A stretch of 64,000 nucleotides of DNA, taken from the sequence record OP172784; one strand, 5' to 3'. Origin of the DNA: Escherichia phage ECO07P1. The position numbers and the translations under genes are program-made. Positions within the stretch are counted from its first letter, which is position 1. The number at the start of each line of letters is the position of its first letter. The notes below the pieces were generated by a model. The model saw only the letters and a program-made list of their open reading frames with translations, searched no databases and was not told the origin of the DNA. Shown in pieces: positions 3,168-42,356 of this stretch.

Positions 3168-6308
<3,141 letters not shown>

Positions 6309-38061: not shown

Positions 38062-38217
38062 TGCAAGATTAATGAATAAAATTCCATATTTTACCATGGA
38101 ATTTATTGATGGGCCTTTTAAAGGACTAATCACGCAGAGTTTAATGGCATATGATTCTGAGCCATTTTTAATTAAAGAACAATCTTGGATAAATTTATTT
38201 TCTAATTGAGAGGTTAT

Positions 38218-38580
38218 ATGAAAGCATATCAAATTCTTGAAGGCACGCATAAAGGTACTATTTATTTTGAAGATGGTATTCAAGCACGAATTATTGTCTC
38301 TAAAACTTTTAAAGAGGACTCTTTTGTAGACCCAGAAATTTTCTATGGTTTGCATGCCCGTGAAATTGAAATTGAAACACAACCTACAGTTAAAATTGAA
38401 GGTGGTCAACACCTGAACGTTAACGTTCTGCGTCGCGAAACTCTGGAAGATGCAGTTAAGCATCCGGAAAAATATCCGCAGCTAACCATCCGTGTATCCG
38501 GTTATGCAGTTCGCTTTAACTCTCTGACTCCGGAACAGCAGCGCGACGTTATCGCTCGTACCTTTACTGAGAGTCTGTAA
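38218..38580 (+). CDS. autonomous glycyl radical cofactor (GrcA/YfiD-like)
   Basis: C-terminal half carries the glycyl-radical signature [25 protein letters not shown]; 3' half uses host-like codons (CTG, CGT, CCG); GAGAGG Shine-Dalgarno. Confidence 0.85.
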
Positions 38581-38801
38581 TGGCAAAGATAATTATTGAA
38601 GGTTCTAAAGATGTGCTAAATGCTTTCGCCGAATGGTTTAGTAATTCAGGCGAACAGCAATTTAATGAAGCGTGGAATATGGGTGATATTGATGGAATTT
38701 ATCCTACGACAGAAATTTCTGTTCAAGGATATGGAATTCATGAGCCTATTCGTTTAGTTGAATATGATTTAGGTACTGGTGAGGAAGTAAAATATGATTG
38801 A
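38580..38801 (+). CDS. hypothetical protein (vs.5 position)
   Basis: 73 aa; TAATG overlap with upstream stop. Confidence 0.55.
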   Translation: MAKIIIEGSKDVLNAFAEWFSNSGEQQFNEAWNMGDIDGIYPTTEISVQGYGIHEPIRLVEYDLGTGEEVKYD

Positions 38802-39060
38802 AGATATTAAGGGTTATAAGCCACATACTGAAGAGAAAATCGGTAAAGTGAATGCTATTAAAGACGCTGAAGTTCGTTTAGGACTTATCTTTGGTGCTTT
38901 ATACGATGAATTCTGGGAAGCACTAGATAATTGTGAAGACTGTGAATTCGCGAAGAATTATGCTGAAAGCCTTGATCAGTTAACTATTGCTAAAACTAAA
39001 CTCAAAGAAGCCAGTATGTGGGCTTGTCGTGCTGTGTTCCAACCAGAGGAAAAATACTAA
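38794..39060 (+). CDS. small protein at vs.4 position (possible Acb2-like cyclic-nucleotide sponge)
   Basis: 88 aa; position between GrcA-like gene and regB corresponds to T4 vs.4; call by synteny and size only. Confidence 0.4.
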
Positions 39061-39340: not shown

Positions 39341-39370
39341 GTTTACTTTTCCTCTTGACTGTGGTATAAT
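39341..39370 (+). promoter_or_regulatory. T4-type early promoter (regB)
   Basis: GTTTAC-N18-TATAAT preceded by TGG. Confidence 0.65.
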
Positions 39371-39866: not shown

Positions 39867-40412
39867 ATGAGAAAAGCACTACTCGCTGGTCTATTGGCCA
39901 TTTCTATGATGGCACATAGCTCCGAGCATACTTTCAGTAATGTCCAACTCGATAACATGCGTTACGCGTATCAATTCGGGGAACAATTTTCTAAGGATGG
40001 AAAATATAAAACACATAAAAATATCCACAAGAGCGGATTAGGTCATATAATGGCTGCTATTTTATGGCAAGAAAGCTCTGCCGGAGTTAATTTAAAATCT
40101 AAACCAAAGCATCATGCCTATGGAATGTTCCAAAATTATTTGCCGACCATGCGAGCAAGAGTTAAGGAACTTGGTTATAATATGACCGATGCCGAAATAA
40201 AAAGAATGTTGAATAAACGGTCCAATTCAGCTTCCTGGGCGTACATTGAACTTTCTTATTGGTTAAATATACATAAGGGTGATATAAGAAAGGCAATATC
40301 CTCTTATAATTCGGGATGGAATGTTAAAGCAGGTTCTAAATATGCTTCTGAAGTCCTAGAAAAGGCTAACTACCTTAAAAATAATAAACTGTTGGAAATA
40401 GTAAATGACTAA
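39867..40412 (+). CDS. secreted lytic transglycosylase-like protein (vs.1 position)
   Basis: Signal peptide MRKALLAGLLAISMMAHS; SLT-like motifs WQESSAG, YGMFQN, SYNSGWN. Confidence 0.6.
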   Translation: MRKALLAGLLAISMMAHSSEHTFSNVQLDNMRYAYQFGEQFSKDGKYKTHKNIHKSGLGHIMAAILWQESSAGVNLKSKPKHHAYGMFQNYLPTMRARVKELGYNMTDAEIKRMLNKRSNSASWAYIELSYWLNIHKGDIRKAISSYNSGWNVKAGSKYASEVLEKANYLKNNKLLEIVND

Positions 40413-40746
40413 AATTTTGGTTTTATGTGTAGGATTAATTTCATTTTCTGCGTTAGCAAATACATCATACACTGAAATTAGAGAGTATGCAAACCGTACT
40501 GCCGCGGATTATTGTGGGAAAAATAAAGCATGCCAAGCTGAATTTGCACAGAAATTAATATATGCATATAAAGACGGAGAAAGAGATAAATCAAGCAGAT
40601 ATAAAAATGATACTTTATTAAAACGATATGCTAAAAAGTGGAATACTTTAGAATGTTCAGTTGCGGAGGAGAAAGATAAAGCCGCTTGTCATTCAATGGT
40701 TGACCGTTTGGTAGATTCTTATAATCGAGGATTGAGTACTAGATGA
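40405..40746 (+). CDS. vs: secreted small protein at vs position (valyl-tRNA synthetase modifier-like)
   Basis: 113 aa with signal peptide MTKILVLCVGLISFSALA; position between vs.1-like and tk.4-like genes. Confidence 0.4.
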   Translation: MTKILVLCVGLISFSALANTSYTEIREYANRTAADYCGKNKACQAEFAQKLIYAYKDGERDKSSRYKNDTLLKRYAKKWNTLECSVAEEKDKAACHSMVDRLVDSYNRGLSTR

Positions 40747-41222
40747 TTGTAAAATATATCAAGGGCGATATTGTCGCCCTATTTCTTCAAGGAAATATTA
40801 TTGCGCACGGGTGCAATTGTTTTCATACTATGGGTTCAGGTGTAGCGGGTCAATTAGCAAGGGCCTATCCTAAAATTTTAGAAATAGATAAAACCACTAC
40901 CGAGTACGGTTCTCGTGATAAATTAGGCGATATGTCTATTGTTTTTAAGCATAGTCCTACGGGATTTGGTATATGCTATAACCTGTATACGCAATACGAA
41001 CCGGGTCCTAATCTTGATTATGGTGCTTTAGTAAATTGCATGATAGAATTAAATCTACAGGCAGAAACCCTTTTGTTTAAACCAGTAATTTACATTCCAC
41101 GCATAGGTTGCGGTATTGCTGGAGGCGATTGGGATAAGGTTTCTAAATTAATCGACATGTTTACTCCTGATATTGATTTAATAGTGGTGGATTATGAAAG
41201 CACATTACCCGCATCCGTTTGA
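40743..41222 (+). CDS. macro-domain-like protein (tk.4 position)
   Basis: Macro-like motifs NIIAHGCNCFHTMGSGVAGQLA and PRIGCGIAGGDWDKV. Confidence 0.5.
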   Translation: MIVKYIKGDIVALFLQGNIIAHGCNCFHTMGSGVAGQLARAYPKILEIDKTTTEYGSRDKLGDMSIVFKHSPTGFGICYNLYTQYEPGPNLDYGALVNCMIELNLQAETLLFKPVIYIPRIGCGIAGGDWDKVSKLIDMFTPDIDLIVVDYESTLPASV

Positions 41223-41406
41223 CCCTAAAAATAAAGCGGAAATTATTCGTCAATGGGAACGCATTTGCCGTACTAAATGCCCAATTAATAGTCCACATGA
41301 TGTAGATAAAGACTATATTGGAACATTCGTTGAATATACCTTTATTGATAAGAAAGGTCGTAAACAACATGTAGAAGAATATTGCTTAAAGGTTACATGG
41401 TTATGA
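41194..41406 (+). CDS. hypothetical protein
   Basis: 70 aa ORF with Cys/His residues; overlaps upstream gene end. Confidence 0.45.
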   Translation: MKAHYPHPFDPKNKAEIIRQWERICRTKCPINSPHDVDKDYIGTFVEYTFIDKKGRKQHVEEYCLKVTWL

Positions 41407-41588
41407 GTCTGAGTAAAGAACAAAAAGACAGACTGTTTTCTCTTATTCACGAAGTTATGGATAAAAATAGTGAATTGGAAAAAGTTTGCGATGAATGCGG
41501 TCCTTTTAATACCGACGAATACGAAGAACTGTGTAAAGATTTCGACGATAAAGAACAAGAACTTATTGATTATATAAATTCCTTATGA
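41403..41588 (+). CDS. hypothetical acidic small protein
   Basis: ATGA overlap start MSLSKEQKDRLF. Confidence 0.45.
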   Translation: MSLSKEQKDRLFSLIHEVMDKNSELEKVCDECGPFNTDEYEELCKDFDDKEQELIDYINSL

Positions 41589-41774: not shown

Positions 41775-42356
41775 ATGGCGAGTTTAATTTTTACTTATGC
41801 AGCAATGAATGCTGGAAAATCTGCTTCTCTTTTGACTGCTGCGCATAATTATAAAGAACGTGGAATGAGTGTATTAGTTCTTAAGCCTGCTATTGATACT
41901 CGCGATTCTGTCTGTGAAGTCGTTTCTCGCATTGGAATTAAGCAGGAAGCGAATATTATTACGGATGATATGGATATTTTTGAGTTCTATAAATGGGCTG
42001 AAGCACAAAAAGATATTCATTGCGTATTTGTAGATGAAGCCCAATTTTTAAAAACTGAACAGGTGCATCAATTAAGTCGAATTGTTGATACATATAATGT
42101 TCCTGTTATGGCTTATGGTCTAAGGACTGATTTCGCTGGAAAATTATTTGAAGGTTCTAAGGAACTTTTGGCGATTGCAGATAAACTTATTGAACTGAAG
42201 GCAGTTTGTCATTGCGGTAAAAAAGCGATTATGACAGCTCGATTAATGGAAGATGGAACACCAGTTAAAGAAGGTAATCAAATCTGTATTGGTGATGAAA
42301 TTTATGTTTCTTTGTGTAGAAAACATTGGAACGAATTAACTAAAAAGCTCGGTTAG
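41775..42356 (+). CDS. tk: thymidine kinase
   Basis: 193 aa as T4 Tk; P-loop NAGKSAS; C-terminal CHCGKKA...CIGDE zinc motif. Confidence 0.9.
   Translation: MASLIFTYAAMNAGKSASLLTAAHNYKERGMSVLVLKPAIDTRDSVCEVVSRIGIKQEANIITDDMDIFEFYKWAEAQKDIHCVFVDEAQFLKTEQVHQLSRIVDTYNVPVMAYGLRTDFAGKLFEGSKELLAIADKLIELKAVCHCGKKAIMTARLMEDGTPVKEGNQICIGDEIYVSLCRKHWNELTKKLG

Follow-up and report, generated by a model that had tools for sequence, protein, structure and literature searches.

In a 64,000-nucleotide (nt) stretch of DNA from Escherichia phage ECO07P1 (sequence record OP172784; the whole stretch is called the window here), a 159-amino-acid (aa) open reading frame (ORF) lies between vs and tk.3. What kind of protein does this ORF encode, and what would a T4-like phage use it for? 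An earlier reading made from the letters alone (the sequence-only reading) had described a macro-domain-like protein and had proposed that it reverses host ADP-ribosylation defenses, such as DarT-type DNA modification, or processes NAD-derived signals. By its sequence and position, the ORF is the ortholog of T4 tk.4, which has been renamed adfM (anti-DarT factor, macrodomain), and we put the probability that its product is an anti-DarTG2 macrodomain hydrolase acting on ADP-ribosylated DNA at about 70%.

Identification of an ALC1-like macrodomain

The two motifs on which the sequence-only reading relied are both present in the 159-aa ORF. The loop 1 motif HGCNCFHTMGSGVAGQ spans residues 22 to 37 (AHGCNCFHTMGSGVAGQ when counted from residue 21 to 37), with N18 and N25 preceding the segment G31-S-G-V-A-G36, and the loop 2 motif PRIGCGIAGGDW spans residues 119 to 130. 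The protein matches the Pfam Macro profile PF01661 at 32 bits, against a gathering cutoff of 22, with an E value of 1.3e-7 and coverage of profile positions 2 to 117 of 118. It also matches PHROG 335 (E = 1.2e-71), and 777 database homologs were found at E ≤ 1e-5. Among the chains of the PDB, sequence matches were obtained with BT1257 (E = 4e-10), Poa1p, SCO6735, DarG of Mycobacterium tuberculosis, and TARG1.

The AlphaFold2 model of the protein, with a predicted local distance difference test (pLDDT) score of 94.8 and a predicted template-modeling (pTM) score of 0.89, has the three-layer alpha/beta/alpha arrangement of the macro fold. Foldseek assigned this predicted model a probability of 1.0 to TARG1, BT1257, Poa1p, and DarG, with human TARG1 as the top match (E = 6e-10; template-modeling score of about 0.73 to 0.82). 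The asparagine and the two glycine-rich loops of a macrodomain are found as N25, MGSGVAG (residues 30 to 36), and GCGIAGG (residues 122 to 128). The sequence profiles and the predicted structure bear out the macro-domain call, and on them the ORF is confirmed as a genuine macrodomain gene, with a match far beyond chance. The nearest relatives in both structure and sequence belong to the ALC1-like class rather than to the MacroD, PARG, or macroH2A classes, and the window protein is a member of that class, which includes TARG1, DarG, SCO6735/BT1257, and Poa1p.

Orthology with T4 tk.4 and its published function

The 2.6-kb stretch around the ORF is 96 to 98.5% identical at the nucleotide level to those of many T4-like phages of Escherichia, Shigella, and Salmonella, and the window is, on this sequence evidence, a Tequatrovirus. 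Alignment with the annotated T2 and T4 genomes gave the gene order vs.6, vs.5, vs.4, vs.3, regB, vs.1, vs, the window ORF, tk.3, tk.2, tk.1, tk, rI.1, and rI. The synteny with T4 and T2 therefore places the ORF at the position of T4 tk.4, and the location in the tk region given by the sequence-only reading is correct, with tk itself at 41775 to 42356. Aligned over 155 aa without gaps, the window protein and T4 Tk.4 have 58% identical and 74% positive positions (E = 1e-70), and they differ little in length (159 and 155 aa, respectively), belong to the same Tequatrovirus host range group, and have the same invariant residues, H22, N25, Q84, G122, G124, and W130. The position between vs and tk.3 is also that of tk.4 in the Dhakavirus phages VR5 and IME281, and the vs-tk block of Jiaodavirus JY1 likewise includes tk.4, with an additional ORF behind vs.

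The gene itself is already known, as its macrodomain is annotated in hundreds of records and a genetic function has been published for its ortholog. A recognizable homolog is encoded in about 2,800 phage records, and other phages, such as PBM-1, encode the identical protein; the window-type allele of the BASEL phage AndreasVesalius is 98.7% identical. Proteins 99 to 100% identical to the window protein have been deposited as "phosphatase," "macro domain protein," and "RNase III inhibitor," and T4 tk.4 is annotated as "phosphatase; contains A1pp phosphatase motif." A bacterial homolog with 40% identity is found on the chromosome of Pelagimonas phthalicica (L006, positions 5001 to 5459), where it is an orphan among unrelated genes; no DarT-like toxin partner was found beside it among the neighboring chromosomal genes examined.

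The function of T4 tk.4 was described in November 2025, when the gene emerged as the single significant T4 match of a HIDEN-SEQ transposon screen in which the host expressed DarTG2; T4 with a clean knockout of tk.4 became sensitive to DarTG2, and the gene was named adfM (bioRxiv 10.1101/2025.11.20.689424). A T4 phage without adfA and adfN had previously been found to be still fully resistant to DarTG2, which implied a further factor (PMC11825919); this resistance fits the existence of tk.4 as a further anti-DarTG2 factor. The proposed reversal of DarT-type DNA ADP-ribosylation is thus supported by the screen and the knockout of the T4 ortholog. The enzymatic step, the removal of ADP-ribose from DNA, was deduced for T4 AdfM by its authors from structural similarity to DarG (bioRxiv 10.1101/2025.11.20.689424). 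By analogy, the window allele, which is 58% identical to the tested one, would do the same job, and its protection would likewise come about through the enzymatic release of ADP-ribose from DNA.

A glutamine-type active site

In the alignment of 121 homologs, H22, G23, N25, C26, G33, and A35 of loop 1 are invariant, and so are Q84 (121 of 121), N80, Y82, and D49; in loop 2, P119, G122, G124, and W130 are invariant in the homologs. N25 is aligned with the loop asparagine of DarG and with N23 of the PhiKZ AdfM, and H22 and N25 correspond to H24 and N27 of SCO6735. In the PhiKZ protein, the N23A substitution reduced the activity (PMC13309987).

The position of the catalytic lysine is occupied differently. 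In profile-to-PDB alignments, Q84 lies opposite K84 of TARG1 and the glutamine of the BT1257 motif ANMIGQHG, which is equivalent to Q85 of SCO6735, and A126 lies opposite D125 of TARG1. In the multiple alignment, Q84 lies opposite the lysine of the FPTK motif in both DarG proteins and in PhiKZ gp104, where the window protein reads LYTQ. With Q84 and A126 at these positions, the Lys or Lys/Asp catalytic arrangement is therefore absent from the window protein. Loop 2, in turn, is near-identical to the corresponding segments of SCO6735 (PRIGCGLAGGTW) and BT1257 (PRIGCGLAGGKW). Thymidine-linked ADP-ribose is efficiently cleared from DNA by SCO6735, which can also rescue cells from the toxicity of DarT; the enzyme lacks both Lys and Asp at the catalytic site, is inactive as a Q85A mutant, and also depends on N27 and G128 (PMC9411070).

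The sequence-only reading had made its proposal depend on conserved catalytic and binding residues being kept, and in substance they are kept: the glycine-rich loops, N25, and H22 are all present, and the lysine is replaced by an invariant glutamine of the SCO6735 type. As judged from the alignments, the Tk.4 family has a Gln-type (SCO6735-like) rather than a Lys-type (DarG-like) active site. A degenerate macrodomain that has lost the catalytic Lys and merely binds its ligand was considered and rejected as the principal interpretation, given that the replacing glutamine is invariant and is essential in SCO6735. For mutagenesis, a Gln-type site would point to Q84A and N25A rather than to a Lys substitution.

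Comparison with known macrodomain systems

SCO6735 (PDB accession number 5E3B) and BT1257 (2FG1 and 2AFC) resemble the window protein in having a Gln where TARG1 and DarG have the catalytic Lys, without an Asp partner, an H-x-C-N motif, and an almost identical PRIGCG[IL]AGGxW loop, and SCO6735 is also a stand-alone protein. They differ in being chromosomal rather than phage borne, and they are only about 26 to 29% identical to the window protein. Compared with the Tk.4 profile, BT1257 has about 6 additional residues in the mobile loop; the Tk.4 profile resembles TARG1 and DarG in the length of this loop, and where SCO6735 has K34 (the GKG lysine), members of the Tk.4 family have Ser or Ala. 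A mobile loop that is five residues longer than those of TARG1 and DarG is the mark of the SCO6735 subclass (PMC9411070), and Tk.4 does not have it. The Tk.4 protein thus appears to work like SCO6735 at the catalytic position, yet we do not place it in the SCO6735/BT1257 subgroup because of its shorter mobile loop, its Ser or Ala in place of the GKG lysine, and its acidic character.

TARG1, also called OARD1 (PDB accession numbers 4J5R and 4J5S), is similar in length and shares the PRIGCG motif, but it has the Lys84/Asp125 dyad where the window protein has Gln84/Ala126. The DarG proteins of DarTG2 systems from M. tuberculosis and Thermus aquaticus (PDB accession numbers 5M3I and 5M31) and PhiKZ gp104 share with the window protein the loop 1 Asn and DarT2 as the opponent, but they have a catalytic Lys (K80 in T. 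aquaticus DarG) in the FPTK motif where the window protein reads YTQ. DarG has, in addition, a second, C-terminal DarT-binding domain, which is not part of the 159-aa, macrodomain-only window protein. DarG was the sole PADLOC match and the best of three weak NCBIfam matches of the window protein, in both cases with the macrodomain part only. The NCBIfam DarG model NF048014 gave 27.7 bits against a cutoff of 250, and the PADLOC DarG model gave 27.5 bits over positions 3 to 144 of 329 only, compared with 132.9 bits for PhiKZ gp104 and 36 bits for T4 Tk.4. No ADP-ribosyltransferase gene adjoins tk.4 in the window, where its neighbors are vs and tk.3. A true DarG was ruled out on account of the scores far below the cutoff, the missing DarT-binding domain, and the missing catalytic Lys.

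PhiKZ gp104 was separately named AdfM in Cell Reports in 2026 and removes DarT2-made ADP-ribose from DNA in vitro (PMC13309987). It matches the M. tuberculosis DarG with an E value of 9e-25 and carries the FPTK motif, and it shows only a short local similarity to the window protein. Membership of the window protein in the PhiKZ AdfM family was thus ruled out, PhiKZ gp104 being clearly DarG-like. As far as the sequences tell, the name AdfM covers two non-orthologous macrodomain lineages, T4 Tk.4 and PhiKZ gp104, which converge on the same target.

Proposed mechanism and alternative functions

In the proposed mechanism, the host toxin DarT2 would ADP-ribosylate thymidines in the single-stranded phage DNA and so block replication. 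Tk.4 would hold the ADP-ribose in the cleft between its two glycine-rich loops, MGSGVAG and GCGIAGG, and would hydrolyze the bond between the ribose and the thymine, so that the DNA is restored. Catalysis would be of the SCO6735 type rather than the DarG/TARG1 type, with Gln84 in place of the catalytic Lys; N25 and H22 would position the substrate and the activated water, and Q84, N25, and H22 together would organize a water-mediated hydrolysis.

The alternative that survives best, and which we nevertheless consider improbable, is that the protein is a small-molecule hydrolase: an ADP-ribose-1''-phosphate phosphatase, an O-acetyl-ADP-ribose deacetylase, or possibly a degrader of NAD-derived immune signals. 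The A1pp phosphatase motif in the T4 record, the phosphatase label of PHROG 335, and the database label "O-acetyl-ADP-ribose deacetylase" all point this way, and according to a comparative survey, soluble ADP-ribose derivatives may be preferred by many viral macro domains. A1pp phosphatase activity in vitro is, however, a common side activity of macrodomains, which weakens the case made by these labels. The similarity to Poa1p is strong only in the N-terminal half of the protein, whereas the phosphate-binding loop matches those of SCO6735 and BT1257, and the sole known phenotype of the ortholog is the loss of DarTG2 resistance.

Slightly less probable again is an action on protein or RNA, in which the substrates of Tk.4 would be proteins with Glu/Asp-linked ADP-ribose, or ADP-ribosylated RNA, modified either by toxins of the host or by the phage enzymes Alt, ModA, and ModB. 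T4-like phages do encode ADP-ribosyltransferases, which counts in favor of this possibility, and the fold relatives TARG1 and SCO6735 also hydrolyze Glu/Asp-linked protein ADP-ribose. The Alt and Mod enzymes, however, modify arginine, and to our knowledge that linkage is not cleaved by this class of macrodomain. In addition, SCO6735 strongly prefers DNA over protein substrates, and the phenotype seen genetically for the ortholog is DarTG2 specific. Least credible of all, and very improbable, is a noncatalytic antitoxin mimic that neutralizes DarT2 mainly by binding the toxin or its product: catalytically dead SCO6735 Q85A, DarG K80A, and TARG1 K84A do still inhibit DarT in vitro by interaction (PMC9411070), but the window protein has no C-terminal DarT-binding domain of the DarG kind (its match covers positions 3 to 144 of the 329-position model), and the invariance of Q84, N25, and H22 across the homologs argues for catalysis.

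Several observations weigh against hydrolysis of ADP-ribosylated DNA as the function of the window allele and keep our estimate from being higher. The phosphate-binding loop is GCGIAGG in the window protein and GAGIGKG in the tested T4 allele, and the specificity of the two could differ. The window protein is acidic, with an isoelectric point of 5.0 and a net charge of -5, and an electropositive DNA channel has been described for SCO6735 and DarG (PMC9411070). At the positions of K34 and K89, two SCO6735 lysines that have been examined by mutagenesis, the window protein has S32 and G88, and the Tk.4 family is without the longer mobile loop that is said to mark the SCO6735/BT1257 subgroup. The N-terminal half of the protein is equally similar to the small-molecule phosphatase Poa1p and to the DNA hydrolases. 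Finally, the preprint in which enzymatic reversal by T4 AdfM was deduced from homology is not yet peer reviewed (bioRxiv 10.1101/2025.11.20.689424).

Replacement of the tk.4 allele

The tk.4 gene of the window is strongly unlike that of T4 inside near-identical DNA. In 60-nt windows, the identity to T4 is 41 to 70% between 40840 and 41199 and 82 to 100% on both sides. The nucleotide identity of the whole gene is 63%, compared with 89 to 99% for its neighbors (97.4% for vs.1, 94.0% for vs, 91.1% for tk.3, and 97.3% for tk), and the synonymous divergence (dS) from T4 is 1.42 for tk.4 and 0.135 for tk. Set beside the 58% identity between the window protein and T4 Tk.4, the flanking genes are at 94 to 100%. 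The closest cross-genus allele is that of the Dhakavirus phage IME281, with identities of 92.5% at the amino acid level and 88% at the nucleotide level, while the flanking proteins of IME281 are only 46 to 77% identical. The ratio of nonsynonymous to synonymous divergence (dN/dS) of tk.4 against the IME281 allele is 0.07, which points to a functional gene under purifying selection. Fast evolution in place was ruled out by the synonymous divergence, which is about 10 times that of the flanking tk, and by the presence of a 92.5%-identical allele in another genus. On these comparisons, the window tk.4 is a recombinational, cross-genus import of an old allele and not the product of decay.

At least three allele groups of tk.4 occur among the sequenced T4-like phages. 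In the phage collection, 312 records carry a window-type allele (at least 90% identity) and 224 carry a T4-type allele (at least 90% identity), and 159 carry an allele with 80 to 90% identity to that of T4; the protein database holds a near-continuum of intermediate Tk.4 alleles. Variety of this kind is to be expected where a locus serves antidefense.

A scan for terminator-like structures found a hairpin of about -13 kcal/mol 20 nt into the tk.4 coding sequence, at the left margin of the divergence island. The hairpin recurs in T4, T2, and two Dhakavirus alleles, again with about -13 kcal/mol, even though synonymous sites nearby vary, and it was not found in the tk.4 allele of Jiaodavirus JY1. 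It is possible that the hairpin is a recombination boundary, an element of mRNA processing or stability, or a coincidence with the codons for KGDIVAL. A more far-reaching idea, which we regard as speculative and unlikely as a whole, is that the tk.4/adfM locus is an exchangeable antidefense cassette, of which at least three allele groups are spread among Tequatrovirus genomes that are near-identical elsewhere, and in which the window allele came from a Dhakavirus-like phage, the alleles perhaps differ in specificity, and the hairpin is the left recombination boundary. If this were true, the alleles might be specific for different DarT2 variants or sequence motifs or for other nucleic-acid ADP-ribosyltransferases, or they might allow escape from a host factor by which the macrodomain is sensed or inhibited.

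Gene packing and neighboring genes

The features of the locus are listed in Table 1. The sequence, read directly, has a GAGGA motif 11 nt upstream of the tk.4 ATG, and the tk.4 start overlaps the vs stop in an ATGA at 40743 to 40746. With this start/stop overlap and the upstream GAGGA, tk.4 is therefore embedded in a tightly packed same-strand operon; it is probably cotranscribed as part of the regB-vs.1-vs-tk.4-tk early block, and its translation appears to be coupled to that of vs. At the other end, tk.3 and tk.4 overlap by 29 nt (41194 to 41222) in the window, compared with a 4-nt ATGA overlap in T4. The window tk.4 crosses the ATGA in a different frame, which gives it a 4-residue C-terminal extension relative to T4, ending in STLPASV. 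A strong promoter-like site lies ahead of regB at 39342 to 39370. In the promoter and terminator scan, promoter-like sites did not exceed the shuffled expectation (16 found and 20.4 expected), and the only promoter proposed is therefore a plausible early one ahead of regB.

TABLE 1 Positions of tk.4, its sequence elements, and its neighbors in the window
Feature	Position	Strand	Remarks
tk.4 / adfM coding sequence	40743..41222	+	ATG start, 159 codons; stand-alone macrodomain protein, ALC1-like class
Loop 1 codons, residues 22-36 (HGCNCFHTMGSGVAG)	40806..40850	+	Putative substrate-binding loop; invariant H22, N25, G33
Gln84 codon CAA	40992..40994	+	Position of the catalytic Lys in TARG1 (K84) and DarG (K80); essential Gln85 in SCO6735
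Loop 2 codons, residues 119-130 (PRIGCGIAGGDW)	41097..41132	+	Putative phosphate-binding loop
Divergence island	40800..41200	.	Part of tk.4 strongly unlike T4 inside near-identical DNA
Hairpin AGGGCGAT-ATT-GTCGCCCT	40762..40780	+	G+C rich, about -13 kcal/mol; from terminator-like scan
Translation-initiation region	40727..40746	+	GAGGA Shine-Dalgarno-like motif at 40727-40731; ATGA overlap at 40743-40746
vs (valyl-tRNA synthetase modifier)	40405..40746	+	Upstream neighbor defining synteny; 94.0% nt and 94.8% aa identity to T4 vs
tk.3	41194..41406	+	Downstream neighbor; 91.1% nt and 94% aa identity to T4 tk.3

The sequence-only reading had set the ORF beside Acb1-like and Acb2-position genes of the same phage. 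The 88-aa ORF at 38794 to 39060 is 96.6% identical at the nucleotide level to T4 vs.4 and lies in the same early-gene block as tk.4. We take vs.4 to be the anti-CBASS (cyclic oligonucleotide-based antiphage signaling system) sponge Acb2. The Acb2 position of this ORF holds by synteny with vs.4; what tk.4 has in common with Acb1 and Acb2 is a shared neighborhood only, with no functional link. The 124-aa ORF at 38206 to 38580 has a C-terminal glycyl-radical motif and corresponds, with 97% nucleotide identity, to T4 vs.6, which is annotated as a GrcA-like autonomous glycyl radical cofactor. T2 (L001, positions 4668 to 5050) and many Shigella and Escherichia phages have two extra small ORFs, of about 380 bp together, between tk.3 and tk.2; the two small ORFs of T2 are present neither in T4 nor in the window (at about 41380 to 41440).

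Implications for phage-host interactions

The phage of the window carries the counterpart of a recently described anti-DarTG2 factor, in an early block with vs.4. Such knowledge may be of use in predicting which defense systems this phage is able to overcome, for instance when host ranges are predicted for phage therapy. The additions made here are modest and leave the basic picture unchanged: they concern the putative Gln-type active site, the use of one name, AdfM, for two lineages, and the exchange of tk.4 alleles across genera that the comparisons indicate. For the T4-like phages, tk.4 would be a hot spot of recombination whose alleles have diverged deeply, which is what an arms-race gene would lead one to expect.

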